A DNA stretch of 64,000 nucleotides from Elusimicrobiota bacterium (GTDB lineage Bacteria > Elusimicrobiota > Elusimicrobia > UBA1565 > UBA9628), in assembly GCA_027319565.1 (NCBI GenBank), contig DAHVNA010000003.1:29042-93041 (forward strand), read 5' to 3'. The notes beneath the pieces are model-generated. The model was not told the origin of the DNA and did no database searches. It saw nothing but the letters and a program-made list of their open reading frames with translations. A program made the position numbers and the translations under genes. This document shows, one piece after another, positions 42,667-59,453 of this stretch (position 1 is the stretch's first letter; each line of letters opens with the position of its first letter).

Positions 42667-43776
42667 TTAATCTTTCTTCTTTATCAAGATAAAGAGCTTG
42701 CCTGCATTCCATTGGTTGGAAGAAACTGTCCGGGCTTGAGCTCCATGCCCCACATACATATCCACCCGTCCTGGGCCCTTGATCGCGCCGCCGGTGTCCA
42801 GGCAAAACGCGAAACTGCGGCGCTTAAAGCGTCCTAGGAAACGCCCTTGACGATCGGCTGATGGCGAGGTCGTCTCTATATAGGCCAAAGCCCCTAGAGG
42901 GATGACGGCGGGATCAATGGCGATAGAAGCGCCAGGCACCAGAGGTTGATGCGCGGTCCCCTGGGGCTCTTCTCCGGGCTGAAACGGATCCAGCTTAAAA
43001 AAAACATAGCGCGGGTCTTGCGCCAGTATCTTTTCTTCCTGATCGGAATGGCTTTTTAAATAAGCATGTAACGCGTCTTTTGATATTTTGCCTTTCTTAA
43101 AAACTCCTTGGCGCACTAAAATCGATCCGATCGGACGATAGGGCAAGCCGTTAGTCGCCGCGTACTGCGCCAAAATTTCGCTCCCATCCGGGAACTTAAG
43201 GATACCGGAGCCCTGAACTTGAAGGTCAAAGACGTCAAAGGGATCTTTCAGCCAAGCCAAGGCAAGACCTTTGCCGGCCAAGGCGTGATCGATATCAATC
43301 TCTTTGCGACTCAAGGAAGAAAGGGCCTTTTCCATCGGCAAGCGATAAATCGGATAGCGATAGACTGAATCTTTATGAAAACGCGCGGAAAGAACCGGCT
43401 CATAATAGTCGGAAAAAATCACTCTTCCCTGGCCGTCCGTTCCTAAAGACTCAAACACCTCAAAATTTTTTTTAAGCGCGCGGGCGAATTGTTTTTGATT
43501 CCGGCTTTCGTGGTTGAGCTTCAAAAACTCTTGAGCGGAATCCGTCAAAGTTTGAACCGTCCATGAATAGCCGCCGGCCTGGACTTTAGATTTTGGAGGC
43601 AATTGCGATAAATAATCCAAGGCCCTTTGGGCCGCGATATCCAAGGCCTTTTGATCCCACTGCGCTCCTTTAAAGGAAGGGGCCTGTAAATTTTTTAGGA
43701 GTTTTAAAGACGGAAATTCTCCGCCCAAAACCGCAACGGGGAAAAAGATAAGAAGAAACAACCTAAAAATTTTCAC
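42667..43776 (-). CDS. mltA: Membrane-bound lytic murein transglycosylase A
   Basis: YYEP, YPIY, LQVQGSG, PRYVFF, SIAIDP, DTGGAIKGPGRVDMYVG (3D domain). Confidence 0.93.
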   Translation of the reverse strand: MKIFRLFLLIFFPVAVLGGEFPSLKLLKNLQAPSFKGAQWDQKALDIAAQRALDYLSQLPPKSKVQAGGYSWTVQTLTDSAQEFLKLNHESRNQKQFARALKKNFEVFESLGTDGQGRVIFSDYYEPVLSARFHKDSVYRYPIYRLPMEKALSSLSRKEIDIDHALAGKGLALAWLKDPFDVFDLQVQGSGILKFPDGSEILAQYAATNGLPYRPIGSILVRQGVFKKGKISKDALHAYLKSHSDQEEKILAQDPRYVFFKLDPFQPGEEPQGTAHQPLVPGASIAIDPAVIPLGALAYIETTSPSADRQGRFLGRFKRRSFAFCLDTGGAIKGPGRVDMYVGHGAQARTVSSNQWNAGKLFILIKKKD

Positions 43777-44936
43777 CGATTAAGCGCAATCCGGGGGTTT
43801 TTAGGCTCAAACAAAACCAGCGTTCGGCGAAGTTCCCCCTCTTCCTCTAGATGAATGGCCTTGACATGGCAAGGCTCGGATTTAAAAACGGTGTCGGCTT
43901 CGACCACTTGATTGGGGCGATCAAGGGCGATTCCAATCAAGCGAAGCACTTCCTGCTGCTGGGTATCGATCACGTCCAATAAATGCGGTTTTGAGGGATT
44001 CTTATTTTGATTGTCTTTGTCTTCAATTCCCGGAATCCCGGAGACCGTCGGCAATTGAAAATTGGTGTAGAGAACGCTATTGTCCTCATCAACGACAATG
44101 GCGTGATAGTTTTTGGGAACCACGGCAAAAAGAATCGAGCGCCACCAACGCGCTTCGGATAAGCCGCGCTGGGATTCACGAACCTTAACCGTGGACAATT
44201 CGCCCTTGACCTTAAAAAGAAACATTTTGAGGGCCTCGGCCACATCTCCGATTTCATCCGAACGCGGCGGGAATTTAAGCTCAAAATTTTTAAACGAAAC
44301 CGCTTCAACAGCTTCTCTTAAATTGAAAAGCGGGATTAGCACCCAACGATGAAGAAAGAAATAAAGCGGGACCCCTAATAAGAGAAGAACACCGACTGCG
44401 CCAACGGCATATTTAGTCATCGCGCTGTTAATGACGGTCACAGCCGTCTCGCGGCTGACTTGGAGATCTAAAATTCCGAGAGCGCGGCCTTCATAGGACA
44501 GCGGAATCGCGATATCGTACAGTGGAAGATTGGGAACAGGAAGAATGACCGGAGATTTCGTCTGCCAAGCCTTGGCAATCGCGTCGGTCGGGAGCGTCAC
44601 CTCTTTGGAAAACTCATCGAAACTTTCCGTAATTTTAGATGGATCTTTAAACCACCGAACCTCTCCATATTTATTTAAATAAACCAAGGCGGCAACCCGG
44701 CGATCGCCCGCAATCCGGGTAATGGTATCCAACTCATCAATGGAAATGACGCTCTGATCATGGCTGAGCCCCCTGACCAAGGTCGGCGCATAGAGATGGA
44801 CCATGTCCAAGGTCTCTTGCTTGAGTTTTTGGTCAAAAGTCCACTTAAAAAGGTTGTAATAGAAAATACCGCCCAGAAACATCACGTAGATTCCGATCGC
44901 GGTAAACCAAAGGAACCATTTCGCGGAAATGCTCAT
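43773..44936 (-). CDS. Two-TM membrane protein with periplasmic domain, HAMP linker and PAS-like cytoplasmic tail
   Basis: TM1, about 140-aa loop, TM2, then IPL..L..AV..V....F...RSDEIGDVAEAL HAMP pattern; no kinase or cyclase motifs. Confidence 0.75.
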   Translation of the reverse strand: MSISAKWFLWFTAIGIYVMFLGGIFYYNLFKWTFDQKLKQETLDMVHLYAPTLVRGLSHDQSVISIDELDTITRIAGDRRVAALVYLNKYGEVRWFKDPSKITESFDEFSKEVTLPTDAIAKAWQTKSPVILPVPNLPLYDIAIPLSYEGRALGILDLQVSRETAVTVINSAMTKYAVGAVGVLLLLGVPLYFFLHRWVLIPLFNLREAVEAVSFKNFELKFPPRSDEIGDVAEALKMFLFKVKGELSTVKVRESQRGLSEARWWRSILFAVVPKNYHAIVVDEDNSVLYTNFQLPTVSGIPGIEDKDNQNKNPSKPHLLDVIDTQQQEVLRLIGIALDRPNQVVEADTVFKSEPCHVKAIHLEEEGELRRTLVLFEPKNPRIALNR

Positions 44937-44961
44937 CTCACGACGCTTCCTTGACCGGGGC

Positions 44962-46290
44962 TCATAGCCCGCCTTTGTTATAAATCTGATCTATCTTTTC
45001 AAGCCCCGCGGCGGCATCGGAATTTTCCGGGTCATATTTCTTGGCCAAGATCCACTCATTTTTCGCCTGTTCGTAATTATGCTGCATATAATACTGAACG
45101 CCCAAGAGATAATGCTGTTTCGAGGCTTTTTTATCCTCCTCTGAAACCGCGGCGGTTTGTAGAGGCGGTGTAGAAGAAGTTTGGGCGGTTTGAGAACTCG
45201 CCGAAACAGAAGCGGTTTGAGCCGCTTTCTCTTTTTCCTTTTTCCGCTCGGCTCTCTTTTTAGCTGCGGCAATAGCCTCTTGTCTTCTCTTGAGCGCGGA
45301 CTTTTCTTCCGCTTTCAACTCTTGATGCCTTTTGACGATCGCGTCTTTGGCTTGGGCAATCAGCTGATCCGCCGACTCCGTGTCGTAACCATAATCTGTA
45401 GCTTGTTTCCACTGGGCAATCGCTTGATTAAAATGTCCCTGACGATAGAGATCTCGTCCGGCAACCACATGCTGATTGGCCATTTCCGAACGAATTTGGC
45501 CCATTAAGCTGCGGACCTTACCATTAGAGGGCTCATAGGACAAAATCTGATCCAAAATCTTGAGCGCCTCGTCGGTCTGGCCTTCCCCGTAAAGAGTCAA
45601 GGCCGCTTCCAGTTTTTTATTCATGTCCCTGTTTTTTTGCTGCATCTCGACTCGCTGAATCGCTTCTTGAAGATGCGGATACCTGGGATTTAAAACAAGG
45701 GCGGAATACCATTGATCCAAGGCTTCTTTATATTGCCTCTTCTGATAGAAAATCCGGCCGCGAACGAAATGCTCATGAGCCAATTTAAAGCGGCACTTTT
45801 TCAGCCAAAACTTGGCCTTGATATTGTAGGGCGACAGCTGAACGACTTCTTTAAACCGGTTTTCCGCCTCGACCAAACGCCCTTCCCGGTAAAATTCCAT
45901 TCCCTCGTCGAACTTATCGACGGATAGCTTATGCTCGGCAAAAAGAGGCCGCGGGGATCCTTTTAAATTAATCGCCGCATCCTGGAGAATCTGCGCGTCT
46001 TGATAATCCGGATCAATAGTCAATATTTGAGCGGTTAATCTCTTAGCCCCGGCGAAATCCCCTTTTTTATATAAATCATATGCGCTCCGGTAAACCTCTT
46101 TGAGCATCGCGCGCGTGATTTGAGACTGTTCTAAATCGACGGTGTCAATGGCTTTTTTCTCCTCATTGGAGCTAACCGGCCCCAAGGTTACTTGGGAAAG
46201 ATTTAGAAATAAAGCGTCCATTTTCTTGTCGCTATCCTGCGCATAAAGCGCGGAAGAAATCAAAAGAAAAAAAGCCGCGACAAAGGCCAT
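44962..46290 (-). CDS. Exported TPR protein (TadD-like position)
   Basis: Signal peptide ending ALYA-QD; multiple TPR repeats and a coiled coil. Confidence 0.8.
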   Translation of the reverse strand: MAFVAAFFLLISSALYAQDSDKKMDALFLNLSQVTLGPVSSNEEKKAIDTVDLEQSQITRAMLKEVYRSAYDLYKKGDFAGAKRLTAQILTIDPDYQDAQILQDAAINLKGSPRPLFAEHKLSVDKFDEGMEFYREGRLVEAENRFKEVVQLSPYNIKAKFWLKKCRFKLAHEHFVRGRIFYQKRQYKEALDQWYSALVLNPRYPHLQEAIQRVEMQQKNRDMNKKLEAALTLYGEGQTDEALKILDQILSYEPSNGKVRSLMGQIRSEMANQHVVAGRDLYRQGHFNQAIAQWKQATDYGYDTESADQLIAQAKDAIVKRHQELKAEEKSALKRRQEAIAAAKKRAERKKEKEKAAQTASVSASSQTAQTSSTPPLQTAAVSEEDKKASKQHYLLGVQYYMQHNYEQAKNEWILAKKYDPENSDAAAGLEKIDQIYNKGGL

Positions 46291-47186
46291 TAGAATCCAA
46301 GGCCTCCTTTGAGAAGCGACTTAATCATCGGTGAAAGCATCATGATAAACACCGTTGGGAAAATGAAAATAAATAGCGGAATCAACATTTTGGTTGAAGC
46401 CTGGGCGGCTAATTTTTCAGCTTTATTGAGACGCCGAAAACGCATATCGGCGGCGTAATTTCGCAAAAGTTCGACCAAGGACGTCCCTAATTCGTCGGAC
46501 TGAATAATCAAGCCTACAAATGAGCGAATTTCTTGAAGCCCGGTCCTCAAGGCCATGCGTTCCAAGGCGTCGCGGCGGGAATAGCCCAAACGAACCTCGG
46601 TCAAGGTCTTATCGATTTCGACCTCAAGCTCGGTTTTAGTCTTGGCGTTTTTGACGATGCGTTCAAAAGCCGACAGGTAATCAAGCCCGGATTCAATGGT
46701 TAAAGCCGCTAAATCGACAAAGGTGGGAAAATTTCTTAAGATGGCCGCTTGCCGAACTTCGACTTGTTTTTTAAAGAGACTGTCCGGCAAGATAAAGCCG
46801 ACCACCAGGCCAAAAATTCCAAACAAAATATTTCCCGTCAAGAGTCCAAACAACGCCCCAAAAGCCGACGCCAAAAGCTCTTTCTGATGGAGAATATCAA
46901 GCGGAGTCGGCTTCTCCGGCCTACCCATCATCATATGCAGATTTTCGATGGCTTTTCCAATCTTTAAAGTATTCAATAGCCATAAATCCAGCCGCTCGAC
47001 AAAAGAGCCCTTGGGGTTTAAAGCCGAAAAAGCGGTCTCAAGGGATTTTTCCGATTTAGCGATTTTAGCGACATCGGTCTCGTCTTGGACTGCCGGGCTA
47101 AAAGCGCGATGAACCAAGGTATAGGTGGCCATCGAGCCTAAAAAGCCCAAAATCAACAAAAGGTAATGCATCATGGTCAAACTCAT
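46290..47186 (-). CDS. tadC: Tad pilus assembly platform protein TadC (T2SSF family)
   Basis: FPTFVDL..IESGL, RLGYSRRDAL, QSDELGTS, AEKLA..KMLIPL..FIFP. Confidence 0.9.
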   Translation of the reverse strand: MSLTMMHYLLLILGFLGSMATYTLVHRAFSPAVQDETDVAKIAKSEKSLETAFSALNPKGSFVERLDLWLLNTLKIGKAIENLHMMMGRPEKPTPLDILHQKELLASAFGALFGLLTGNILFGIFGLVVGFILPDSLFKKQVEVRQAAILRNFPTFVDLAALTIESGLDYLSAFERIVKNAKTKTELEVEIDKTLTEVRLGYSRRDALERMALRTGLQEIRSFVGLIIQSDELGTSLVELLRNYAADMRFRRLNKAEKLAAQASTKMLIPLFIFIFPTVFIMMLSPMIKSLLKGGLGF

Positions 47187-48862
47187 ACCTGGACATCTCC
47201 CAATTTATTGACCACCTTCATACCGATGGCGATCCAGATCGTGCAAAAAAGCAATGTAATTACGCCCAGAGGGCTAAAATAAAAAGCGGACATCTGCTGG
47301 GGCTGAAACAGAAACATCACTAAAAGCATAATCCACGGCATAATGCCAACGACAATGGCCTGAATTCTCTGTTGCGCCGTCATCGCGGCGGTCTTTTCCA
47401 CCAATTTAGTTTCTTCGCGGATATTTTCGACAATGCGGTCAAACAGCTTCGTCAGGTTTCCGCCCGCGGTCCTTTGAATGACAATGGCCTTGATAAAATA
47501 AGACAAAAGTCGGCTCTGCACTCTTTCTTCCATTCCCTCCAAAGCTTTCTCGATGCTGGTTCCCAGCTGATAATTTTTAAGACAAAGCCCAAATTCTTCC
47601 GAGATAGGCGGTTGCAAATCCTTTTGGACCATGCCGAAACATTGCACTAAATCGACTCCCGCTTTAAGGCCATTGGACATCAAAATCAGCGCGTCCATCA
47701 ACTGTTTTTCGCATTTCATCCCTCGGCGAAAACGAATATTCTGTAAAAGCCATCCCGGTAAAATCAGCCCGGCATATGTTCCAAGCCCAAAAAAGATAAT
47801 AAACCCAAAGATATTAAAAGTCAAAAGTCCCACTAAAAACCCCAAGACAATCGGAGCTCCCACTAAATAATTAACTTTAACGGTCAAAAACTGGCGTTGA
47901 TATTCGTAGGCCCACTCTTTAGCCTTGGCTTTATAACGATCCGTCGCTTCTTGGATTTGAGCTTTATTAAGACTGCCGAGAAACCATCCCCCAAAAAGCA
48001 TGACGGCTACTCCCACCAGCGTTAGAAAAGTCGCTAGAGCTGGAGACGCGGGGCCCGGCACATCGGGAGGGGCGTAGCCCGCCGGCGGCTGATTGAGCCT
48101 TTGAAAGGACTGTTTAGCCAACATCGCAATGGCCATGACCCCTTGCCGATATTCCTTCACATTTCCATTGGTTAAACCGGTAATCAAACTTTCCATTTCT
48201 TTGTCGATCAACGAAAAAATCGCCATTTCTTCCCGTCCGCGCCCGGCCAGGGAATTTTCAAGCCGCGCGCGATAGAGGCGGTCCAAGGCCATCTCAAAGC
48301 GAATGCGTTCGGTCTCATAATCGCCGGCGAGCGTCTTGGGATCTTGCAATTGGCCGCCGTCTTTGGGCGATAAGGTTTTGCGGGTCAACTCAAAAACTTC
48401 GTAGAGGACCGCCGGAGGCCCCTGCCAAATCTGCGCCTCATTAAGCGTTCCTTGTTCCGGGTCCTGCCAAACCGGATGAGAAATCATCGCCGGCATAATT
48501 TGATCGACCCAGCCGGGAACGATCAGGGCGGGATCGCGGTCTTTCTTAAAATAATGATAAAAACGCTGGACGTCTGATTCCGCCCCGCTTTGGGGATTAA
48601 AAATATAATTGACCTGGGCCGGATTGAAATAATCGGCGAAAGCGGAAGCGGAAAGAAACGGAGAGAAAAAGAGAGCAACGGAAAGTAACGGAAAGACACG
48701 GAAAGCAAAGGAAGGCAAAGGAAAGTTACGGAAAGAAACGGCAAGTAACGGAAAGAAACGGAAGGTAACGGAAAGACACGGAAAGGAACGGAAAGGAAGA
48801 GACAACAGCGAATACTTGCCGTCTCCTTTTATTTCTTTCCGTTTCTCTCTGTTGCTTTCCAT
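47183..48862 (-). CDS. tadB: TadB with extra N-terminal exported domain; signal peptide is encoded by a repeat array
   Basis: C-terminal QLMDALILMSNGLKAG, PPISEEF, QRTAGGNL, TAQQR; N-terminus ends ASAFA-DY. Confidence 0.88.
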   Translation of the reverse strand: MESNREKRKEIKGDGKYSLLSLPFRSFPCLSVTFRFFPLLAVSFRNFPLPSFAFRVFPLLSVALFFSPFLSASAFADYFNPAQVNYIFNPQSGAESDVQRFYHYFKKDRDPALIVPGWVDQIMPAMISHPVWQDPEQGTLNEAQIWQGPPAVLYEVFELTRKTLSPKDGGQLQDPKTLAGDYETERIRFEMALDRLYRARLENSLAGRGREEMAIFSLIDKEMESLITGLTNGNVKEYRQGVMAIAMLAKQSFQRLNQPPAGYAPPDVPGPASPALATFLTLVGVAVMLFGGWFLGSLNKAQIQEATDRYKAKAKEWAYEYQRQFLTVKVNYLVGAPIVLGFLVGLLTFNIFGFIIFFGLGTYAGLILPGWLLQNIRFRRGMKCEKQLMDALILMSNGLKAGVDLVQCFGMVQKDLQPPISEEFGLCLKNYQLGTSIEKALEGMEERVQSRLLSYFIKAIVIQRTAGGNLTKLFDRIVENIREETKLVEKTAAMTAQQRIQAIVVGIMPWIMLLVMFLFQPQQMSAFYFSPLGVITLLFCTIWIAIGMKVVNKLGDVQV

Positions 48863-48980
48863 TTCTTTCCGTTGCTCTCCGCTTATTTCCGTTTCTTTCC
48901 GTGTCTTTCCGTTACTTTCCGTTGCTCTCTGTTTCTTTCCGTTGCTTTCATTTTCTTTCTGTCACTTTCCGTTACTTTCA
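48651..48980. repeat. Inverted array of 10-bp tandem repeats (GGAAAGWAAC x~15, then GTTWCTTTCC x~16)
   Basis: Read directly: left arm 48651-48800, right arm 48811-48980; the arms are reverse-complement consensus. Confidence 0.97.
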
Positions 48981-51275
48981 TTTCGGTTTCGCCGCCGGGG
49001 CGGGACTTGCATTTCCCATCCCCAACGAGAGCGCCTGTTTTTCCGGCGAGGGAAGGCCTTGTCTTTTGGCCTTGGATTCCTCGCTTTCAAAAATCGACTT
49101 TGGAACATTGAGGCCTTTGAGATGAAACTCTTCGTGAAAGGTAGGGACATAATCGCAGGCGGAAAAATAGCCGACGCTTTGGCCTTTCTCGTTAACTGCC
49201 ACCTGGTGATATTTGTAAATATCGCGCATGGATATCTTAAGCCCCTCTTTTCCGGTCACTTCGGTCACATAGGTCACTCGCCTTTTTCCATCGGCAAACC
49301 GGGTCAATTGAACGATGACGTGAACCGCGCTTGAAATCATGTCCACCAAAACCGACATCGGAAGTTCCGTCCCCGCCATCAAACACATCGCCGACAAGCG
49401 CGAAATCGCGTCATTGGGAGAGTTCGCATGCAAAGTCGCCAGCGATCCCTCATGGCCGGTATTCATCGCTTGAAGCATGTCCAAGGCTTCTCCACCGCGG
49501 CACTCGCCAACCACGATGCGGTCCGGTCTCATGCGCAGACAGTTTTTAATCAGGTCGCGAATGGCAATTTCTCCTTTTCCCTCGATATTGGGAGGGCGCG
49601 ATTCCAAGCGCACCCAATGCTCTTGCATCAAATTAAGTTCCGCGGTGTCTTCCACGGTGATGATGCGCTCGTCTTCCGGAATAAAATTAGACAACATATT
49701 TAAAAAAGTTGTTTTTCCGGTTCCGGTTCCACCGGAGATGATGATATTCTTGCGCAAGATAACGCAGTTTTTAATGAAGTCTATGATATCGGGCGTGCAA
49801 GCCCCAAAGCCAATCAACTGCTTATAAGTAAAGGGTTTTGCCGAGAAACGCCGAATGGTAAGCGTCGGACCGGAAACCGCCAGCGGCGCGATAATGGCGT
49901 TGACCCGGGAACCGTCTTTAAGGCGCGCATCGACGAGTGGCACCGACTCATCAATTCTACGCCCCACCGGAGCGACAATGCGCTTGATCACTTGAACCAC
50001 CTGATCATCGTCTCTAAACCTCACCGGAAGAAGCACTAATTTGCCCTGGCGCTCGATATAAATTCGGTCAAAAGCGTTGACCATGATTTCGTTGATGCTG
50101 GGATCCCGCAAGAGAGACTGAAGCGGCCCTAGACCCAAGATTTCATCGATGAGTTCGGTAGTGAAAAGTTCGCGCTGTTGGCGTGAAAGTTTTAGATCCG
50201 GCTCTCGTTGAAGCAGGCTTTCGATGATCGCTGAAACTCTCGCCCGATTTTCTTCATTCTGACCGGTTTCATCTGCAATGCGAATGCGCTCGGTTTCCAT
50301 CGCGGTCACAACCAACTTGTGCATCTTCCCTTTGAGCTCATCCCAAAAAGGCGGAAGATCTTCAGCGGGCAAACGAACAGGATCGGGCTTTTTCTTGGCG
50401 GGCGCCTCAGGAGAATCCGCGCCAAGAGCGGATTTCCACAAGAGTTCCGAGCCTTGCTGGAATTCGCTTGTCTCAAGATTGGACTCCCACGATTTCGCCG
50501 CCGGAATCGCGCTGCCAAGACGAGCGAGCAGAACTTTAAGGGTTTTTGCCCAGTCATTTTGCATATTTTCGGCGACTAAAATTTTTTGCGTATTGGCGCA
50601 CTCGGGAATCAACTCCTCCCAAGGCATATAGGCCAGCACTTTCTTTTGAAGAGTCTGGAAAAATTTATCGATTTCTTGGGGAGCTAAAGAACCGGGGAGA
50701 TTGGCTTGGTTGATCACCACTTCAAAGCGTTCTAAAGGAAAATGGAGGGCTTTGAGCTCGGAAAAGATGTTGTAGGTCGCCTCGCAATGGCTTCTCTGCG
50801 GCAGACAAACCCAATAGACGAGATCGGCGAAATCCAAAGAGAAAATCTGCATTGGAAAATAAGGGTCGACATCGATAAAAATATCATAAGTCTCAGAAAG
50901 GGCTCCCAAAACCTTGGCTACCACCTGGGGCTGAAGCATCGTGATCTCTTTTCTGTTATTACCCAAGGGCAAGACTCCGACCCCCCATTGGCTCATCGGG
51001 ATTCGCCCGCGCAAGAGCTTTCCTAATCCTGAAGGGTTAGGCGCGACCAAGGAGGAAAGCTGCGCTAACGTCGGAGAATTAAGGCGCAATTGAAAAGAAA
51101 GATCATTGCGTCCTAAAGGATCCATCGAGACGATCAAAACGTTTCGGTTCTGGGTTCCGGCCCACACCAAGGCCAGGTTAAGACATATCGCGCTTTTCCC
51201 GACCCCTTCCTTGGGCCCGGTAAAGACCGCAACCCGTCCCGGCAAACTAACCGTCTTCGTTTCTGGGCTTGCCAT
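48978..51275 (-). CDS. cpaF: Fused CpaE/TadZ (ParA/MinD-like) and CpaF/TadA pilus ATPase
   Basis: N-terminal GPKEGVGKS deviant Walker A; C-terminal GLGPL, VDARLKDGSRVN, GGTGTGKTT, LRMRPDRIVVGE, MNTGHEG. Confidence 0.93.
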   Translation of the reverse strand: MASPETKTVSLPGRVAVFTGPKEGVGKSAICLNLALVWAGTQNRNVLIVSMDPLGRNDLSFQLRLNSPTLAQLSSLVAPNPSGLGKLLRGRIPMSQWGVGVLPLGNNRKEITMLQPQVVAKVLGALSETYDIFIDVDPYFPMQIFSLDFADLVYWVCLPQRSHCEATYNIFSELKALHFPLERFEVVINQANLPGSLAPQEIDKFFQTLQKKVLAYMPWEELIPECANTQKILVAENMQNDWAKTLKVLLARLGSAIPAAKSWESNLETSEFQQGSELLWKSALGADSPEAPAKKKPDPVRLPAEDLPPFWDELKGKMHKLVVTAMETERIRIADETGQNEENRARVSAIIESLLQREPDLKLSRQQRELFTTELIDEILGLGPLQSLLRDPSINEIMVNAFDRIYIERQGKLVLLPVRFRDDDQVVQVIKRIVAPVGRRIDESVPLVDARLKDGSRVNAIIAPLAVSGPTLTIRRFSAKPFTYKQLIGFGACTPDIIDFIKNCVILRKNIIISGGTGTGKTTFLNMLSNFIPEDERIITVEDTAELNLMQEHWVRLESRPPNIEGKGEIAIRDLIKNCLRMRPDRIVVGECRGGEALDMLQAMNTGHEGSLATLHANSPNDAISRLSAMCLMAGTELPMSVLVDMISSAVHVIVQLTRFADGKRRVTYVTEVTGKEGLKISMRDIYKYHQVAVNEKGQSVGYFSACDYVPTFHEEFHLKGLNVPKSIFESEESKAKRQGLPSPEKQALSLGMGNASPAPAAKPK

Positions 51276-51276
51276 T

Positions 51277-52069: not shown

Positions 52070-52825
52070 TTATTTAAAGAGCTTTCTAAAACTCGCCATC
52101 TCCATCGGATGCATCTCCAAATCTCCCAAGCCTCTTAATATGACGGTGACTTCGCCTTCTTTCATCGAAAGGGCTAAATACTGGGCCTCATCCGGATTTA
52201 AAGCGACGGAAACCGCGGCCTTATCCGAAAGAGAAGAAAGCTGACTCTGTTGGGAGTTCAAGGCCTTGGCCTGCTTGGCGTTAAGCCCTTGCCCCATATT
52301 GTCTCCAACGGCCAAAACCATTAAATTCTGAAGAATGGTCGCGGTCACTTTTTCTTTATGGCCATCGGCCATTTTCGCGTTAAAAGTCACGAGCACATCC
52401 ACATGGTCTCCCGGCTTAATGAGGTCTCTCATCGCCGGGTTAATCGGCAAAATCGCCCCGCGATACCCCGGGGGAATCTTAACCGAAAGCCCAGCCTTGG
52501 CCGACATTGAAATGACCGCCGATTGCGTGATCTGGTCTCCCTGCGGGATACGAATGCGCGTCACCAAGTTTGAAATCATGCTGATATCCGAAGGAGAGCG
52601 AATTTCAAAGGCGTCTTGCTGCATAAATTTTCTGGGAATGGAGACAGGCTCAACCATATTCTCTTTGAGGACCGTCCGCTCGGGAATGTCGAGTCTTGCC
52701 ACCAAGACATGCGTCGTTTCATATGCGCTCATCAAGGAACGCTCCTTGGCCGTCAAAATCATGAGATAAATCGTCGCTGCGGCAATCGCCAGGATCGCGG
52801 GAATCAGAATATTTTTTTTGTCCAT
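52070..52825 (-). CDS. cpaB: Flp pilus assembly protein CpaB/RcpC
   Basis: N-terminal TM, SAF domain VLVARLDIP, IPPGYR, IKPGDHVDVL, ILQNLMVLAVG. Confidence 0.92.
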   Translation of the reverse strand: MDKKNILIPAILAIAAATIYLMILTAKERSLMSAYETTHVLVARLDIPERTVLKENMVEPVSIPRKFMQQDAFEIRSPSDISMISNLVTRIRIPQGDQITQSAVISMSAKAGLSVKIPPGYRGAILPINPAMRDLIKPGDHVDVLVTFNAKMADGHKEKVTATILQNLMVLAVGDNMGQGLNAKQAKALNSQQSQLSSLSDKAAVSVALNPDEAQYLALSMKEGEVTVILRGLGDLEMHPMEMASFRKLFK

Positions 52826-52837: not shown

Positions 52838-53425
52838 TCAGTTGTTTGAATACGGCAATGGAATCTCGACCGGCATATCGACGACGGCCTGAATCTGCCG
52901 GACATTTTGCCCGTGCACATTAGATAAAATTAAGCTGCTCAAAGGAAAAACCAGCGGCACGTTGTAGGTCGCGGTCACTTCCAAATCCTCATTTTGAACC
53001 CCGGACTGCGGATCTTGAAGAGTTGGAATCATGCTTGAGGTTAAGGTCGCGCCCTTGATATGCTGGCTGAGAAGCGCCTGCATCGTTCCCGTTGGATTAC
53101 TCACACTCCCTGTTTTTCCAGCCGCCGTCATCGCCCCCACGCGAGCGCATTCAAACGTCGCATGGTTAAGCACGATGACCCAGAAGGCGATATAGCCCAT
53201 TTCCATGATGGTAAAAACAATCGTCAAAAAAACCGGCAAAATGAGAAGGGTTTCAACCATGACCTGCCCGCCTTTTGAGCGAAGGGAAGGCGCGCACGAT
53301 TGCCTATTGGAAAGACGTTGCAATCGGGCCTGACCCAGTTCTGAAAATATCGGGCGAGGGGGTCGAACCCTCGGGGTTTTACAAAACCCAGTGTTCCCGA
53401 TACCTCTAGGCGAAGCTGTCTTCAT
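52838..53425 (-). CDS. tadE: TadE-like pseudopilin with long leader
   Basis: G|QVMVE class III cleavage site, hydrophobic helix, ECARVG; start codon uncertain. Confidence 0.88.
   Translation of the reverse strand: MKTASPRGIGNTGFCKTPRVRPPRPIFSELGQARLQRLSNRQSCAPSLRSKGGQVMVETLLILPVFLTIVFTIMEMGYIAFWVIVLNHATFECARVGAMTAAGKTGSVSNPTGTMQALLSQHIKGATLTSSMIPTLQDPQSGVQNEDLEVTATYNVPLVFPLSSLILSNVHGQNVRQIQAVVDMPVEIPLPYSNN
53348..53402 (-). other. Perfectly paired three-way junction with TTCGA loop (tRNA-like or REP-like) in the tadE leader region
   Basis: TATCGGG/CCCGATA outer stem, GGGTTTT/AAAACCC arm, CGAGGG-TTCGACC-CCCTCG arm. Confidence 0.6.
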
Positions 53426-53448: not shown

Positions 53449-53634
53449 TTATTGCCCCATATTCGATGCAGCGCCCGAAATCATGCCTTGAATTTGCTGA
53501 AAAAGGCTCGGCATATACTTTTTAAGAGCAAAGCCGGCCGCCAAAACGACGCCGACGACGACCGTCAACATCAATAAATACTCAACCGTGTTTTGACCAC
53601 GCTGAGACTTAAGCCACTGATTCATTTTTTTCAT
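53449..53634 (-). CDS. flp: Flp family type IVc pilin
   Basis: RG|QNTVEY motif plus hydrophobic helix; AGGAGAG RBS. Confidence 0.9.
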   Translation of the reverse strand: MKKMNQWLKSQRGQNTVEYLLMLTVVVGVVLAAGFALKKYMPSLFQQIQGMISGAASNMGQ

Positions 53635-53659: not shown

Positions 53660-53824
53660 CTAGATCCACGTCGATAGAATCATCATCGCCGCGTTGGTAA
53701 AGAGGCTTTTAAGTTGCTGCTGAATAAATCCATAAAACCCGGAAAAGGCCGCGACTAAAACCACCGTGGTCAAAAGATATTCCACCGTGGTTTGCCCTCG
53801 GCTGAGCCGGTATTTTTTTCTCAT
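53660..53824 (-). CDS. flp: Second Flp-like pilin (54 aa), absent from ORF track
   Basis: Manual translation MRKKYRLSRG|QTTVEYLLTTVVLVAAFSGFYGFIQQQLKSLFTNAAMMILSTWI. Confidence 0.88.
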   Translation of the reverse strand: MRKKYRLSRGQTTVEYLLTTVVLVAAFSGFYGFIQQQLKSLFTNAAMMILSTWI

Positions 53825-53830
53825 ATTCCC

Positions 53831-53905: not shown

Positions 53906-55051
53906 CTAAAATTTAGTGGTCAGGGTAAACTGATTGACGGTCCCCAATGCCCCCATCGGAACAAAGGCATAATCGACCCCTAAGCCGTAGCCAAAAGCGG
54001 CGGAGGTGTAAAAACCAAGGCCCAAACTAATGCCGCTGACCGCGTTAAGGTTAATGGCCGGAGAACTCGGAGTGGTAATCGCGGTATAATTATCGGCTTC
54101 AAAATACCCGGCGCGGAAAGCCAATTGACCCACCTCTAAATATTCTTCAGGAACGGTAAATTCCGCGCCGACTCCGGGCCGCGGAATATCACCGGCGAAT
54201 TGATGGACCTCGAAGCTTAGCTTAAAGAAATCATTAGGGATAATCGCAAAACCCGCGCGCATTGTAGAACCAACGACATATTGGCTGGCGCCAAAATTTT
54301 GGTAGGAAGCTCCAAGACTCAGCCAATCATTGGGCTTAACGATAATTCCGGCATCTCCGACCAAGCTGTCTGAGATATCTCCGTTATAGTCTTGATGCAC
54401 TAGGCGAAGGGTTCCGCCCAAAAAAATGCGCTCATACCAGAAAGATCTGGCGACAGAAACAGCCCCATAGCCATTGTTAACCTGGACGTTAAAATTAGAA
54501 AGCGGCACCCCGTTTTGATCGCGAACGTCAAAATTATTATCGCTCATGTAAGAGCCGCTAAATCCAAAAACCGTTTGCCCCACCGGCTGGGCATATGCCA
54601 TATAGACGGGAGCTTGAACTCCTTGAATATATTTGAGGTAGGAATAAGAAAATTCTCGTTCATCGGTCATCGCGAGCCCCGCCGGATTCCAGGTAATGGC
54701 GTCAACGCCCGAGGCCAAGGCGACAAAGGATTGTCCCAAGGCCATCGCCCGAGCCGAGCCCTGAGAAATATCTAAAAAGGCCGCACCCCCGGTTCCCGCC
54801 CCGGCGCTAATGGCCCAGGCCGAAGGGACGGAGAGGAAAAGAGAGAAACAGAAAGCAACGGAAAGTAACGGAAAGTAACGGAAAGTAACGGAAGGTAACG
54901 GAAAGAAACGGAAAGTAGAAGAAAGCAAAGAACGGAACCAGACAGAAACGGACAGAAACGGAGAGAAACAGACAGTAGAGGAAAACGGCAAAAACCTTCC
55001 GTTACTTGCCGTCACTTTCCGTAACTCTCTGTTACCTTCCGTTTCTTTCAT
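53906..55051 (-). CDS. PorV/PorQ-family outer membrane beta-barrel; signal peptide is encoded by a repeat array
   Basis: AAFLDI..SARAMALG..F.A.....AITWNPAGLA signature, DYAFVPMGALG, terminal Phe. Confidence 0.85.
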   Translation of the reverse strand: MKETEGNRELRKVTASNGRFLPFSSTVCFSPFLSVSVWFRSLLSSTFRFFPLPSVTFRYFPLLSVAFCFSLFLSVPSAWAISAGAGTGGAAFLDISQGSARAMALGQSFVALASGVDAITWNPAGLAMTDEREFSYSYLKYIQGVQAPVYMAYAQPVGQTVFGFSGSYMSDNNFDVRDQNGVPLSNFNVQVNNGYGAVSVARSFWYERIFLGGTLRLVHQDYNGDISDSLVGDAGIIVKPNDWLSLGASYQNFGASQYVVGSTMRAGFAIIPNDFFKLSFEVHQFAGDIPRPGVGAEFTVPEEYLEVGQLAFRAGYFEADNYTAITTPSSPAINLNAVSGISLGLGFYTSAAFGYGLGVDYAFVPMGALGTVNQFTLTTKF

Positions 55052-55110
55052 TTTCTTTCTGCTACTTTCCGTTTCTTTCCGTTACCTTCCGTGTCTTTCC
55101 GTTGCTTATC
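54831..55110. repeat. Second inverted array of the same 10-bp repeat
   Basis: Left arm 54831-54980 (includes three exact GAAAGTAACG units), right arm 54991-55110 (GTTWCTTTCC). Confidence 0.97.
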
Positions 55111-55112
55111 AC

Positions 55113-58100
55113 TCACGGGATCAGCACCTTTTTAACGGTTTGGGCAAAATTTTTATTTCCGTAAGTTTCCTGAGCTTGAAAGACCACATAGTAAATTCCT
55201 TTCGCCACCGGACGCCCGGCTTCATTGTCTTTGTTCCATACATATGTCAGAGGAGACGGGCTGTCATATGCGGGAGGGACCTGTCCGAAATCATGTTGAT
55301 AGACCAATTCTCCCGCCATCGTATATATCCTCATGAAGACATCGCCCTGGAAAGGCACCCAGATTGAAAAAGTCACCGTCGGCCCGTACGCAGGATTGGG
55401 ATAGGCGTAGGTATTTTGATCAAAATCTCCCTGGGGGTTTAAGGATCCGTTTCTACTGACCGGCAAATTCTCAATATATTGATCAATGGAGAGTTCGCAG
55501 AGGTCTCCCTGAGTCACTTGTCCCGTAATCGTGTCAATGGCGGTGTTGTCGGTAGATCCTATGACCGTAAAGGTGTAATCCCCATCCGGGACCTTGGTGA
55601 AACTGAGGTCGGTTCCATCCCAATCAGTCTCGACTGGCTGGCGCGGCGGCTGGTTTGAAACCAGCACCTTGACCAACGAGCCGATTCCCCCAGTCGTCGT
55701 ATAAGCAGGCGGGCTCGGGCTTCCAATCTGGGGACAATAAGACTGGTTGATATTGGAATTGGGAAATTGCGTATTGGGACGATAAACCAAGACCGCGACC
55801 TTCATTGGTTCCGAGACTTGATAAAAGATGCGCGCCGTAGGATTTTGGAGATTAATGGGGCTGACCGCCAAATCATAAATCTGAATAGGGAAATAGCTAA
55901 TCGTCGCCGCAGAAGTCGACAAAGAGAGGAGGGAGTTTTCTGAAGCCACGTCTTGCGCCGTCATGACGATGGTATAGAAATTAGGAGGCGGGAAATTGCC
56001 ATAATTATCCCGTCCATCCCATACGGCGTTGACGGGAACCCCCCCGTCATATGATTGCCCGAAAACCAAATTGCGAATCACCTGCGGCGGGGTATTGTCA
56101 TTGACCACATTGATTGTCACCGAAGACGGGCGCGTCAATTCAAAATTGATGGTAAATGGATCAAGTTCGACTGTTTGACTTGAGTAATAAGTTCTGGCGA
56201 TAGTCGGCTCGACGTTAAAAATAGGAACGCCGATGATTCCCCTGGCAACTGGAATAATTCCCACGATGCGGTCGGTTGAATAAGCAGAGCCGCCCTCGAC
56301 CGGAACCGTCGCCTGAGCAACCAAGGTAAAGGGATAATCTCCATCCGAAACCATGATTCCGTTGGAGTCAATTCCTGGCCAATTGTCCGAGACCATCAGA
56401 CGCCCCGCGCGCATTCCGTAAATTTGATAGAAAGGCACTTCGGGAACTCCGTTGGAGGCAACGACATCATTACAAGGGCTATTTTGAACCACTTGTCCGC
56501 ATGGCGGCCAAGAAGTATTGACGTTTTTAATAATGGTCCCCGGTTCATAGATATTAATTCCCGTCCACATGGCGTTAGATTCCTCATAATTAATAAATGC
56601 CGTGGCGGTCGTTCCCGAAAGAAGCGGAGACACCGTCAAATTGGTCGTCCGGAACATATCAACCGGGAAAATAGCGGTGGTAGTCGAGACAAAAGCGGGG
56701 AAAGCCGGGTCCCAAGCTTCGAGTTGAACCAGATAATCCCCGGATGAGACGTAGAGACCATTGTCATCGGTTCCATCCCAAATTTCGGTATTGGGAATGT
56801 TGGCGGATCTGGACTCACCCAAAATTAGATGCCTCACAACCGCAGTAGAATTGGCTTCGTTAAAAATATCAACCTTAACCGTGGCGTCCCGGGTCAGGGT
56901 ATAGGTAAATTCAAAGGGGTTGATTCCCGCGACCGGAGGGCTTGAACCGACGACAGTTGAAGTCGGCGTAATTTGGCTAATTCCCACAAGCCCCCGAACC
57001 ACTGGGATAAAGCCGGTATTGGCCACCATGGTCCAAATGCGCGAATCATTAGGGTTTCCATTAAACGGATAGCCATTTTGAGAGGCCAGTTCCGCATAGA
57101 GAACATACACATAATCTCCATCCGGCAAGAGATTTCCCGAGCTGTCTCTCCCGTCCCACCAATCGATGACCGGCGTGCGGGACGGTTGGGATTGGACGAT
57201 ATGCTGAATGGGAGAAACATTAGAAACAATGGGCCCCGATGTTGGACAAGGCCCCATATACGGATAAAAATTCTTGGGTGGCGCAATCGCCTGATTGACT
57301 CCCGCTCCCGTGTCTAACCCTGGATTGTTAACGCTCGACAGCGGCACAATCTCCTGCCCTCCTATCGACACAGGAGAACAAAATTGAACGCCCGGCGGGT
57401 AAATATCCAAAAATGTCGTCGCGGGCTCGGTCAAGGTGTATCCAATCACCGCCAAAGAGGTCGATCCGCCTTCAAGAGGAGTCACCGCAATATCGGTGAT
57501 TTGAAGCGGATTAATGGACATGGGATAGGTATAGGGAGCGGAAATATCAAGCCCATACTGATCCGCGTTTTCGGCCTGGAGATAGACCAAATAGTTCCCA
57601 GGCGGGGCCAAATCTCCATTATCATAACGCCCGTCCCAGGCATCTCCATTAGTCAGGGTTCCGCCCGGGTAACCCTCGCCCACCCGCGGAAGCCCGTTGA
57701 CCAGATGCCGAACGATGGTGACAGTAGATTGATTGATGACTCCACTAGGGACCGTGACGGTCGTAATTTCAATAAACATGGTCGCGTCTTCCGAGAGGCG
57801 ATAGGTCAAATTATAAGGCTCGGCCGCTACGGGAGTTAATTTCCCGACCAAGGTCGGAGACGAGCGAACGACATGGACATCGACGACATTAACCGTAATC
57901 GGTTGCTGTAAAACATTGGCCCCGGCGGTAAAAGAACCGGCGGATTGATAGCTAAAACTACCGCCAGTGATAGAAGCCGTCCCACCCCCGCTGGCAACGC
58001 TAAAATTAATGGTCCCTGAAGTAACGGCTCCTGCCGCTCCAGAACCATTGGCAAAGGTCCCTTGGCTTAAGCTCAGGCTCCCCGTTCCGTTGAGCAAAAG

Positions 58101-59453
58101 TCCGTTTCCTGATCCCACGCAGTTACTGCTATTACAAGAAAGCACGCCTCCAATCTCCGCCCCTTGAATGCTGGTTGACTGCGCCGAAAAAGAAACGCCG
58201 GTCACCCCTGTCGATAGGATGCTCCCATTATAAGTCCCACTTTGAATATAAGTGATCCCATTAGCGCTGCTGGAGTTGAGATTCAAACTGACAGCATCGC
58301 CGGGGGACAAATAACCGCTGCTTGAATTGGTGGAAACAAGGGTCAGAGATCCACTTGTGATTGTGTCAATCGCTGAATATGAGGGAATCGTTTGAGTGAG
58401 TGGATAATTCACAAAGTCCGCGTCATTGGTCGAGCCCGAGGGATAGGCCTGCACATTGGAAAGTTGAATATTTCCGGTCAAGGATTGAGTCTCATTGGTC
58501 GCGACTGTCGCCCGAAAGCCAAATTGACCGTTGGTCTTGCCAAAAATCCCCTGAATATTAATGGAACCGTCCCAAGGAACGCAATAAGGCCCGAGATCCG
58601 GGCATCCCGGTTCTCCACTGATTCCAGTCGTACAACCCTGAAATCCATCCGGAGGGATATATCCGACATTATTGATAAAGAAAGTTCTTAAAGGCGGGGT
58701 TGAAGTGGGGTCTAAGGGATTAGAACCATTGGCGTATTGAAAAACTTCATACTCAAGCGAATCAATCGCCATGGGCGCCAGGGGAACGCCGCTACCGGGT
58801 AAAAGCGCCTCGCTTAAATCATAACCCACCGAGGCGCAGAGATAGATCTCGCTATTACAAATGTTTGAGGCCTCATCCGACGGCCAAGGAATTAAAGGAA
58901 CCGTAGACGGAGCTGATTGGGTTTGTGTTGTCGTTACCCCGTCCGTAACCAGGGCTCCCAGATTACTTAACTGTTGAGTGGCCAGGGCGGAACATTGGGC
59001 CGCGCCAAACCCGCCAGTGCCCGACTGTCCCTCTTGATCAAATTCGATATGCGGGTCATTGGATATATTTCCAAACCCCGCATAATAATCAGGATTAATC
59101 GTGGGAGCCCCCGAGAAATTTTGTCCCCCGCCGGTCCCGCAAGCCGGAGAACTGAGGATTCCAGTACACAAATCCGTTGGCGAAAGCGGAATCGGGGGGC
59201 AGATAAAGCGCGGAACGCCTCCCACGGTGTCTTGAACGATGCAGTTTGGGTTAACCTGCTGGGTAAAAATAGAATCGATAAAAATCTGCTGGGCGCTTGA
59301 AGCTTTGGGGAACAGAGAAAAAAGCGCAAGTGGAAATAGGCCGGACCATAAAACCTTTCCCATAGATGTTCCGGGACGCTCTCGCTTCGCGAGTGAATGC
59401 AGGGACAGTTTCCATTTCCACTTGCCGCGCGGATGCGATATTCGGATGCTCAT
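55113..59453 (-). CDS. Large secreted protein with tandem FlgD-Ig-like modules and a T9SS-type C-terminal sorting-like domain
   Basis: About 8 W(D)GxDxxG...GxY modules; C-terminal YAYPNP..IYTMAGELV..WN..GIY..KKVLI; likely start 59363 (MGKVLW..ASSA-QQ). Confidence 0.82.
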   Translation of the reverse strand: MSIRISHPRGKWKWKLSLHSLAKRERPGTSMGKVLWSGLFPLALFSLFPKASSAQQIFIDSIFTQQVNPNCIVQDTVGGVPRFICPPIPLSPTDLCTGILSSPACGTGGGQNFSGAPTINPDYYAGFGNISNDPHIEFDQEGQSGTGGFGAAQCSALATQQLSNLGALVTDGVTTTQTQSAPSTVPLIPWPSDEASNICNSEIYLCASVGYDLSEALLPGSGVPLAPMAIDSLEYEVFQYANGSNPLDPTSTPPLRTFFINNVGYIPPDGFQGCTTGISGEPGCPDLGPYCVPWDGSINIQGIFGKTNGQFGFRATVATNETQSLTGNIQLSNVQAYPSGSTNDADFVNYPLTQTIPSYSAIDTITSGSLTLVSTNSSSGYLSPGDAVSLNLNSSSANGITYIQSGTYNGSILSTGVTGVSFSAQSTSIQGAEIGGVLSCNSSNCVGSGNGLLLNGTGSLSLSQGTFANGSGAAGAVTSGTINFSVASGGGTASITGGSFSYQSAGSFTAGANVLQQPITVNVVDVHVVRSSPTLVGKLTPVAAEPYNLTYRLSEDATMFIEITTVTVPSGVINQSTVTIVRHLVNGLPRVGEGYPGGTLTNGDAWDGRYDNGDLAPPGNYLVYLQAENADQYGLDISAPYTYPMSINPLQITDIAVTPLEGGSTSLAVIGYTLTEPATTFLDIYPPGVQFCSPVSIGGQEIVPLSSVNNPGLDTGAGVNQAIAPPKNFYPYMGPCPTSGPIVSNVSPIQHIVQSQPSRTPVIDWWDGRDSSGNLLPDGDYVYVLYAELASQNGYPFNGNPNDSRIWTMVANTGFIPVVRGLVGISQITPTSTVVGSSPPVAGINPFEFTYTLTRDATVKVDIFNEANSTAVVRHLILGESRSANIPNTEIWDGTDDNGLYVSSGDYLVQLEAWDPAFPAFVSTTTAIFPVDMFRTTNLTVSPLLSGTTATAFINYEESNAMWTGINIYEPGTIIKNVNTSWPPCGQVVQNSPCNDVVASNGVPEVPFYQIYGMRAGRLMVSDNWPGIDSNGIMVSDGDYPFTLVAQATVPVEGGSAYSTDRIVGIIPVARGIIGVPIFNVEPTIARTYYSSQTVELDPFTINFELTRPSSVTINVVNDNTPPQVIRNLVFGQSYDGGVPVNAVWDGRDNYGNFPPPNFYTIVMTAQDVASENSLLSLSTSAATISYFPIQIYDLAVSPINLQNPTARIFYQVSEPMKVAVLVYRPNTQFPNSNINQSYCPQIGSPSPPAYTTTGGIGSLVKVLVSNQPPRQPVETDWDGTDLSFTKVPDGDYTFTVIGSTDNTAIDTITGQVTQGDLCELSIDQYIENLPVSRNGSLNPQGDFDQNTYAYPNPAYGPTVTFSIWVPFQGDVFMRIYTMAGELVYQHDFGQVPPAYDSPSPLTYVWNKDNEAGRPVAKGIYYVVFQAQETYGNKNFAQTVKKVLIP

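Follow-up and report, generated by a model that had tools for sequence, protein, structure and literature searches.

A Tad/Flp pilus operon of Elusimicrobiota that begins with a CTD-bearing Ig-repeat protein and a PorV/PorQ-like barrel

Genes and features of the locus

The window, the whole 64,000-nt stretch of DNA analyzed here, comes from Elusimicrobiota bacterium assembly GCA_027319565.1 (contig DAHVNA010000003.1, 29,042 to 93,041 of the forward strand). An earlier note, made from the sequence alone, had named 13 co-oriented genes in a particular order. All 13 minus-strand open reading frames were present between 42667 and 59453, and family profile matches bore out the order. In the direction of transcription, the genes and associated features are as follows:

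55113..59453, minus strand: giant secreted Ig-repeat protein, 1446 aa as listed (FlgD_ig E 5.9e-31, three stretches)
55116..55445, minus strand: C-terminal domain (CTD) of the giant, last 110 aa, T9SS type A CTD-like (PorZ C-terminus E 3.8e-9)
54844..55107, no strand: inverted arrays of the 10-bp repeat GGAAAGNAAC, located after the giant's stop and before the conserved portion of the barrel gene
53906..55051, minus strand: PorV/PorQ-family outer-membrane barrel, 381-aa ORF (PorV_fam 83.1 bits, E 2.6e-23)
53660..53824, minus strand: Flp-type prepilin 1, 54 aa (G/QTTVEY motif by eye; conserved in most loci)
53449..53634, minus strand: Flp-type prepilin 2, 61 aa (G/QNTVEY motif by eye)
52838..53425, minus strand: TadE-like pseudopilin (PF07811 E 3.1e-9)
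52070..52825, minus strand: CpaB/RcpC (TIGR03177, 106.4 bits; cut-off, 71)
51277..52020, minus strand: minimal Tad secretin, 247 aa (PF00263 E 3.7e-38)
48978..51275, minus strand: TadZ/CpaE-like ParA/MinD domain fused to TadA/CpaF ATPase, 765 aa (CbiA 17-231, T2SSE 381-667)
48645..48979, no strand: the inverted 10-bp repeat element in its second copy, with the ATPase gene on one side and tadB on the other
47183..48862, minus strand: long TadB-like platform protein, 559 aa (T2SSF residues 392-517, E 2.5e-18)
46290..47186, minus strand: TadC-like platform protein, 298 aa (T2SSF E 2e-18)
44962..46290, minus strand: secreted TPR protein in the TadD position (TPR families)
43773..44936, minus strand: two-TM membrane protein with a weak HAMP-like segment (Pfam HAMP E 0.028)
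42667..43776, minus strand: MltA lytic transglycosylase (PF03562 and 3D domain)

Translation of the giant probably starts at Met31 and leads into a Sec signal peptide; its orthologues (1119 to 1276 aa) all carry a signal peptide at their start. A conserved N-terminal head and an S/G/T-rich insert precede about five FlgD-Ig-like repeats, with WDGxDxxG-type motifs at residues 766, 892, 1025, 1145, and 1406. No recognizable fold was found for the head, so the label "adhesin" is drawn from the architecture alone. Residues 1340 to 1430 match the C-termini of PorZ (E 4.4e-8) and PorU, and it is these two C-termini that the CTD matches best; against TIGR04183 (Por_Secre_tail) it scored 19.4 bits (E 7.6e-4), under the cut-off of 23. 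Throughout 39 orthologues the CTD keeps PNP without change, in most of them as YPNP, and carries W..N..G and VKK.L near its end.

The PorV_fam score of the barrel lies just under the NCBIfam cut-off of 90 bits, and the protein also matches PorQ (E 2.2e-13) and PorV (E 4e-5). A profile from 40 barrel orthologues matched solved PorV (6h3i_F, E 2e-5). When a structure model (pLDDT 77, pTM 0.79) was searched with Foldseek, the best fold match was a PorV in complex with a CTD substrate (8gl6_F, E 6.7e-9); 6h3i_F came fourth and FadL/TodX followed closely, and the barrel is thereby modeled as a PorV-like FadL-type fold. Its conserved mature part begins near residue 80, the preceding residues coming from the repeat element and being missing from orthologues. 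In distant orthologous loci the 10-bp arrays are missing, and the giant and barrel genes overlap by 4 nt. Across loci, the stop of the giant overlaps the start of the barrel in 37 of 39 cases, with gaps of 1 and 7 nt in the other two, and this translational coupling implies a giant-to-barrel ratio of 1:1. The giant's CTD is predicted to be bound by this cognate barrel.

The remaining genes include Flp prepilins, TadA/CpaF, TadB/TadC, RcpA/CpaC with RcpC/CpaB, and TadZ/CpaE; the locus is a Tad/Flp system. It has the same core parts, in the usual gene order, as the Tad/Flp (type IVc) systems Cpa of Caulobacter and Rcp-Tad of Pseudomonas and Aggregatibacter, sharing with them the Flp G/xxxxEY site, TadE, CpaB/RcpC, an RcpA-type secretin, CpaF, TadB/TadC, and the TPR protein. 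Unlike known Tad/Flp systems, however, it has a TadZ/CpaE-like domain fused to TadA, a secretin of only 247 aa, a TadB with an extra conserved N-domain of about 300 aa, and, as genes 1 and 2, the CTD protein and the PorV-like barrel; it also differs in being without TadV, TadF, TadG, and RcpB. Family profile searches recognized none of the last three in the operon, in agreement with the earlier note, which had reported the window to be without TadG.

No family profile reached its cut-off for prepilin 1; prepilin 2, which is 51 to 97% identical among relatives, matched Flp1_like under the cut-off (E 3e-4). The secretin consists of a signal peptide and the secretin domain, without N-domains, and keeps this length in relatives; its closest solved relative is RcpA 8odn (E 1.5e-23; residues 83-246 against 207-370 of 8odn). 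The fusion ATPase, full length in relatives, matched solved CpaF (E 1.3e-110) and T2SSE (E 1.7e-63), and scored 321.6 bits against TIGR03819, under the equivalog cut-off of 373. The first 90 or so residues of the long TadB ORF come from the second repeat element and are unconserved; orthologues align only from residue 52-93 on. The extra conserved domain spans approximately residues 92-390, and a family search with it gave no match. By eye, the signal peptide of the TPR protein has no lipobox cysteine. The two-TM membrane protein, the last conserved gene of the operon, had been called a HAMP protein; the gene is present as described, but its match to HAMP, at 15.2 bits where the cut-off is 25, is weak. 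A promoter-like pattern, real as a pattern, precedes flp1 at 53859-53831; 21 such sites were observed in the region against 16.2 +/- 4.3 expected.

As the earlier note had it, the window holds no prepilin peptidase, PorK/L/M/N, or SprA gene: profile searches for A24 peptidase, SprA, and GldK/L/M/N gave no match anywhere on its contig. Genome-wide, Peptidase_A24 matched on two other contigs, C34 (60.7 bits) and C78 (23.2 bits), and a prepilin peptidase from elsewhere in the genome could act in trans. The genome has one Tad set only.

Conservation of the linkage

The first twelve genes, from the giant CTD protein to the two-TM membrane protein, keep the same order across one Elusimicrobiota class. 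Searching with the ATPase, we found giant and barrel in all 39 related loci whose upstream DNA was long enough; searching with the barrel, we found tad genes downstream of it in 68 of 69 loci. At these loci the pair constitutes the first two operon genes, and the linkage of CTD protein, porV, and tad that the earlier note had proposed to check across genomes is therefore conserved. The order persists with barrel identity down to about 30% and is kept in families f4, f5, and f7. Barrel and flp genes are typically separated (median, 59 nt) instead of overlapping. In f7 the cargo is down to 357 aa with CTD and barrel retained, suggesting that the tag-barrel unit and not the long rod is the constant part. 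MltA, which the earlier note had counted as the thirteenth gene, adjoins the operon in the closest relatives only (L014, L015, L017, and L018) and therefore falls outside the conserved unit.

With the two-TM membrane protein gene as operon marker, genome surveys detected this marker in 50 of 121 genomes of the phylum, all of one class. It was found in none of the 67 genomes sampled from other classes, nor in any of 4 from families f6 and f9 within that class. In a barrel tree, 42 tad-linked barrels fell on one side of a branch (SH-aLRT 93) and 11 paralogues from the window's genome on the other. In five reduced genomes an SprA-like gene and Tad are retained alongside a single barrel and a single CTD protein: their sole strong PorV-family gene is the tad-linked barrel, and their sole CTD-like match is the ORF directly upstream of it. 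Class-wide conservation, the split in the barrel tree, and the reduced genomes all contradict an earlier caveat that the linkage was perhaps incidental. Conserved order in one class could nonetheless partly reflect shared descent.

T9SS-like parts in the genome and phylum

Four further CTD-protein/PorV-like pairs lie in the window's genome, away from the tad genes, and their cargos pass TIGR04183 (29 to 35.5 bits; cut-off, 23). A 1918-aa ORF on contig C20 is a candidate SprA-like translocon: it scored 97.2 bits (E 4.2e-28) against TIGR04189, whose cut-off is 200, and 25 of its 30 nearest Atlas clusters carry SprA_N. Pfam gave no match to it, and none was obtained to solved SprA in the PDB, even with a 10-sequence profile. 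Across the phylum, 261 of 301 genomes have an SprA-like candidate and 60 of 61 have PorV-family barrels, a single genome giving as many as about 30 matches; both kinds of gene also occur in genomes that gave no match to the operon marker.

The earlier note had allowed that a complete canonical T9SS elsewhere might account for barrel and cargo; none was found. Profile searches of the window's genome (91.65% complete) returned no match to GldL/GldM (PorL/PorM) or to the GldK/GldN (PorK/PorN) ring. In 151 phylum genomes GldM matched none and GldL one, weakly; because no control genome matched either family, the sensitivity of this search is unproven. The peptidase part of PorU was not covered by any NF033707 match in the genome; four ORFs there match nothing but the C-terminal end of the model (positions 911-1094 of 1095).

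Like the Bacteroidota T9SS, the window's genome has PorV-family and CTD parts and an SprA-like candidate; unlike in that system, motor, ring, and sortase were not found, and PorV-family genes are multiplied. Elusimicrobiota lie outside the groups named in the sections of the T9SS papers drawn on here. According to Glew et al. 2017 (PMC5562754), PorU and PorZ retain their CTDs and form 1:1 subcomplexes with PorV and PorQ, and in porU mutants uncleaved cargo remains PorV-bound. The pair at this locus resembles PorZ-PorQ and PorU-PorV of P. gingivalis in pairing a secreted type-A-like CTD protein with a PorV/PorQ-family barrel. In contrast to those pairs, the cargo is an Ig-repeat rod, neither sortase nor LPS carrier; searches turned up neither a PorU peptidase nor PorK/L/M/N; and the pair is encoded within a pilus operon. 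Type B CTD proteins, as Gorasia et al. are said to have described in 2022, are encoded beside cognate PorP/SprF-like barrels. The Elusimicrobiota modules are similar in that the cargo gene adjoins one dedicated anchoring barrel gene, several times per genome, but here the CTD is type-A-like and the barrel PorV/PorQ-like.

A proposed tethered surface protein alongside a pilus

We favor, with moderate confidence, the explanation that the operon yields a tethered, PorZ/PorQ-like surface adhesin alongside a Tad pilus, and judge this most likely when set against a new Tad-driven secretion system. One operon would give rise to a compact pilus machine (two Flp pilins, TadE, CpaB, an RcpA-type mini-secretin, TadZ-TadA, TadB, TadC, the TPR protein, and the membrane protein), with its prepilin peptidase supplied from another genomic site, and to a Sec-exported, rod-like Ig-repeat protein. 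The cognate barrel, made 1:1 with the rod, would hold its type-A-like CTD. The rod would cross the outer membrane most likely via the genome's SprA-like translocon, a route that is incomplete as a model because no known T9SS energizer or ring was found. Since no PorU was found, the rod is probably uncleaved, and it would remain tethered on the barrel, much as Porphyromonas keeps PorZ on PorQ and PorU on PorV. Together, the pilus and this rod may attach the cell to surfaces or to other cells.

Giant and barrel might instead be structural parts of the Tad outer-membrane assembly that pili would need, replacing missing RcpB, TadF, or TadG functions or supporting the N-domain-less secretin. We consider this unlikely. 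In its favor, the pair always leads the operon, reduced genomes keep only this PorV-family/CTD pair, the secretin is short, TadF, TadG, and RcpB went unrecognized, and CTD and barrel outlast the long rod in f7. However, four copies of the module lie away from Tad genes in the window's genome, the module family is phylum-wide, and by family profiles neither giant nor barrel is similar to any known Tad part. The earlier note had proposed CTD/PorV display for which a Tad motor, in place of PorLM, supplies the power or to which it is coupled. Its genetic linkage holds. As a mechanism, Tad would act as a type II secretion-like piston or motor that exports the CTD protein and replaces PorLM, the barrel serving as anchor; this seems quite improbable, as does the exit it would entail, through the mini-secretin or via the SprA-like protein. 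The conserved linkage, the near absence of GldL/GldM matches, and the joint retention of SprA-like gene, barrel, CTD protein, and Tad in reduced genomes are consistent with it, yet the SprA-like ORF on C20, the SprA-like and numerous PorV-family genes of genomes where the marker was not found, and the four pairs unlinked to the single Tad set leave the motor unsupported. We know of no precedent for CTD-protein export by a Tad machine, and a literature search found none.

That the linkage is merely inherited gene order, with no shared function, is highly improbable. The promoter-like site before flp1, the gap in place of an overlap between barrel and flp, and the origin of every locus in one class would agree with such inheritance; on the other hand, the order has survived extensive barrel divergence and strong genome reduction, and flanking genes such as MltA are not retained.

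Beyond the favored adhesin and pilus, we tentatively raise the prospect that CTD protein, PorV-like barrel, SprA-like translocon, and Tad make up one integrated envelope apparatus in this Elusimicrobiota class. In one version the pilus machine would require the tag-barrel unit as an outer-membrane part; in the other, the unit would be a cargo with Tad-dependent display. We hold the proposal to be doubtful. If true, such an apparatus would represent type IX-like display without PorLM, PorKN, and PorU, tied to a type IV filament machine.

Gene content of the operon and its leading pair

The window lies on contig C45 of a 2.03-Mb genome (91.65% complete), and the relatives of its locus were found in Elusimicrobiota MAGs. 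An earlier note had described 13 co-oriented genes of a Tad-pilus operon with type IX secretion system (T9SS) features between positions 42667 and 59453. All 13 minus-strand open reading frames were recovered there, and Pfam and NCBIfam models confirmed the gene list.

Genes of the operon, in transcriptional order
55113-59453, minus strand: giant protein, 1446 aa, FlgD-Ig repeats
53906-55051, minus strand: barrel, PorV/PorQ family (83.1 bits against a cut-off of 90)
minus strand: two Flp-like pilins, TadE and CpaB (Pfam/NCBIfam)
minus strand: secretin, 247 aa; closest solved relative, the Tad secretin RcpA
minus strand: ParA/MinD-type domain fused to a TadA/CpaF ATPase; closest solved relative, CpaF
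minus strand: two T2SSF proteins (TadB and TadC), 559 aa and 298 aa
minus strand: TPR protein, membrane protein (43773-44936) and MltA (Pfam/NCBIfam)

The membrane protein gene is present as described, but its designation as a HAMP protein is weak (E = 0.028). Housekeeping genes flank the operon, with argS upstream and L31, RF1 and PrmC downstream. Two genes upstream of the operon, past argS, lies a gene for a PilT-like ATPase (61571-62647, minus strand; T2SSE, E = 7e-47), which may serve either the Tad pilus or another pilus system of this genome. The long TadB carries a conserved N-terminal domain of ∼300 aa without a family match (window 47183-48589, residues ∼92 to 390); in relatives further away whose matches are full length, identity is 54 to 66%.

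The giant probably starts at Met31, ahead of a Sec-type signal peptide, and all of its orthologues have a signal peptide as well. Conservation across 39 orthologues is strong over the final 110 residues, with an invariant PNP (mostly as YPNP), W..N..G and, close to the C terminus, VKK.L. These residues matched the C termini of PorZ (E = 3.8e-9) and PorU, and scored 19.4 bits against the C-terminal tag (CTD) model TIGR04183, under its cut-off of 23. A jackhmmer search of the genome with the same 110 residues returned the giant alone; the tag common to the cargos of this genome was detectable with family models only. The head of the giant (residues 55 to 560) gave a poor predicted fold (pLDDT 61, pTM 0.49), with no Foldseek match in the PDB at E ≤ 0.001 and nothing usable from an Atlas search. 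At 1446 aa, the protein is ∼170 to 330 aa longer than most orthologues (1119 to 1276 aa), and distant orthologues are without its stretch rich in S, G and T (window 57900-58400, residues ∼350 to 520).

For the barrel, a profile of 40 orthologues matched the solved PorV structure 6h3i_F (E = 2e-5), and an AlphaFold model (pLDDT 77) had as its best Foldseek match the PorV of a substrate-bound T9SS complex, with FadL-type barrels ranking shortly behind. A maximum-likelihood tree, computed quickly for 53 barrels, omitted a near-duplicate on contig C80 and four relatives nearly identical to the window; in it, one branch (SH-aLRT 93) separated all 42 tad-linked barrels from 11 paralogues in the window's genome. 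The apparent separation of tad-linked barrels from paralogues is tentative because the branches are long.

Two inverted arrays of the 10-bp unit GGAAAGNAAC and its complement were observed in the window, at 54844-55107 and 48645-48979, exactly where the signal peptides of the barrel and TadB are expected to be encoded. Translated in the current frames, the arm rich in purines gives a charged N-region, and the one rich in pyrimidines gives a very long hydrophobic stretch terminating in the conserved cleavage-site motif. About 20 array sites, located by blastn (a strict regular expression missed most copies), occur elsewhere in the genome at the 5' ends of envelope genes, on contigs C14, C15, C19, C22, C23, C30, C33, C67, C78, C89 and C96. 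At the barrel junction, close relatives have a shorter array (locus L018) or a different palindrome (loci L015 to L017), distant relatives have none, and the site varies even between relatives 93 to 97% identical elsewhere. As the unit length is not divisible by 3, a change in copy number would shift the frame; such frameshifts could switch expression on and off, and array RNA could form a ∼150-bp hairpin.

Conservation of the linkage across Elusimicrobiota

Conservation of the linkage between the giant-barrel pair and tad genes, which the earlier note had left to be checked, was established from two directions. Using the fused ATPase as the query, 50 loci were found. Of these, 39 have 2.5 kb or more of sequence ahead of the pilin/TadE genes, and all 39 contain both giant and barrel. 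The remaining 11 were cut short or, for the Chloroflexia locus L062, matched the ATPase half alone; L062 was rejected as an operon relative. An independent search from the barrel gave 78 loci, with CpaB and the secretin downstream in 68 of the 69 with enough room. An upstream giant was scored in 71 of 74 of these loci, the exceptions being L161 and two loci, L097 and L119, that do contain the giant but whose match to it overlapped the threshold. L161, from Ca. Desantisbacteria (29 to 30% identity), was the sole barrel match outside the phylum and has no tad genes nearby, and linkage beyond the phylum was rejected. In 37 of the 39 loci, the TGA of the giant overlaps the barrel's start codon (ATG or GTG), where its signal peptide begins; the gap is 1 and 7 nt in the other two.

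Distribution of the operon was scored over 121 sampled phylum genomes with its last conserved gene, the membrane protein, as a marker. The marker was detected in 50, including every sampled genome of families f1 to f5, f7 and f8, and in 0 of 4 genomes of families f6 and f9 and 0 of 67 from other classes. An identical 12-gene order occurs in f4 and f5, and the operon is carried by a class member whose genome is complete in a single contig (G066, 1.64 Mb, f4). In f7, the cargo is just 357 aa and its gene still overlaps that of the barrel by 4 nt. Linkage to MltA is restricted to the nearest relatives. The operon version furthest removed from that of the window (L082:7888-12406, in f7 genome G064) has two tandem CpaB genes, and its 357-aa CTD protein stands in place of the giant. 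A possible second Tad operon on contig C71 was rejected: this 2,396-base contig repeats the secretin/ATPase stretch at C45:78406-80799 with 90% identity and probably represents a variant strain that entered the same bin.

In five genomes of 1.4 to 1.6 Mb from a single genus (g15), the tad-linked barrel was the sole strong match to the PorV family model. In three of them (G033, G027 and G050) it shares contig and strand with the marker and lies ∼9.8 kb upstream; in G044 and G039 it is on a separate contig from the marker. TIGR04183 gave one weak match in these five genomes, a 1672-aa open reading frame immediately upstream of the tad-linked barrel. An open reading frame resembling the translocon protein SprA is retained in 86 of 88 f4 genomes. 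Taken together, these results indicate that the pair, the SprA-like gene and Tad were retained jointly while other pairs were lost.

CTD/PorV-like pairs and T9SS-like components outside the operon

Thirteen PorV-like open reading frames were found in the window's genome, four of them directly behind a large same-strand protein.

Further CTD/PorV-like pairs in the genome (contig and positions, size of the large protein)
C22:30753-35299: 1080 aa
C14:24560-30858: 1729 aa
C33:12695-22929: 2777 aa
C41:9675-14262: 1143 aa

The C-terminal ends of these four cargos all pass TIGR04183. No Tad genes lie beside any of the four pairs, and the Tad set of the genome is single. A large TIGR04183-tailed protein followed by a PorV-like barrel is a recurrent two-gene cassette here, with four instances besides the pair in the window; the cargo-barrel junctions on C22 and C33 also hold a 10-bp repeat array.

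The SprA-like gene (C20:15445-21201, minus strand) encodes a putative outer-membrane protein of 1918 aa, which matched the SprA model TIGR04189 at E = 4.2e-28, with 97 bits against a cut-off of 200. It had no Pfam match, and neither the sequence alone nor a profile built from 10 sequences matched a solved structure. Among the 30 Atlas clusters closest to it, 25 contain SprA_N. Its relatives occur in 261 of 301 phylum genomes (223 of 234 high-quality ones). PorV family matches were present in 60 of 61 sampled phylum genomes, with up to ∼30 each, including families without a detected tad marker.

Models for the motor and ring components GldL, GldM and GldN had no match in the window's genome (91.65% complete), and none in any control genome either; GldK was likewise unmatched in this genome. 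Across the phylum, GldM was found in 0 of 151 genomes and GldL in 1 of 151, as a weak match of 24.7 bits, again with no control genome matched. The match to the sortase PorU in the window's genome was confined to the C-terminal end (model positions 911 to 1094 of 1095). Elusimicrobiota look as though they possess a T9SS-like outer-membrane set that lacks the known motor.

Predicted role of the pair

By its appearance and gene arrangement, the pair looks like a cargo-anchor unit. For Porphyromonas, PMC5562754 describes PorU and PorZ as retaining their CTDs and binding PorV and PorQ 1:1, and uncleaved cargo as remaining bound to PorV when PorU is missing. Since PorU is undetectable in the window's genome, permanent tethering of the giant would, by analogy, be the simplest outcome. 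Because the pair consistently leads the Tad operon, with its two genes coupled, we propose that it shares a role with the pilus, most plausibly in attachment.

The earlier note had instead suggested a CTD/PorV display pathway that is powered by, or coupled to, a Tad motor in place of PorLM. Tad as the motor of CTD export fits poorly with the spread of SprA-like and PorV family genes beyond the families that carry the Tad operon, and with the four CTD/barrel pairs unlinked to Tad. It is conceivable that Tad drives the export of this particular cargo, the giant heading its operon. A shared role in attachment remains our preferred reading.

The T9SS papers surveyed, PMC5562754 among them, assign the system to Bacteroidota or the FCB superphylum, groups to which Elusimicrobiota do not belong. 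Literature searches returned nothing of substance on T9SS in Elusimicrobia or Elusimicrobiota, and no description of the pair-Tad arrangement among work on PorV with Tad pili or on Elusimicrobium pili. The phylum combines an SprA-like protein, multiplied PorV family barrels and CTD proteins with no detectable motor, ring or sortase, and a streamlined Tad operon that outlasts genome reduction has one tag-barrel pair built into it. This offers a small natural system in which to probe the capabilities of the minimal CTD/PorV/SprA unit and the source of its energy, and suggests how these small, mostly uncultured bacteria may attach to surfaces or hosts.
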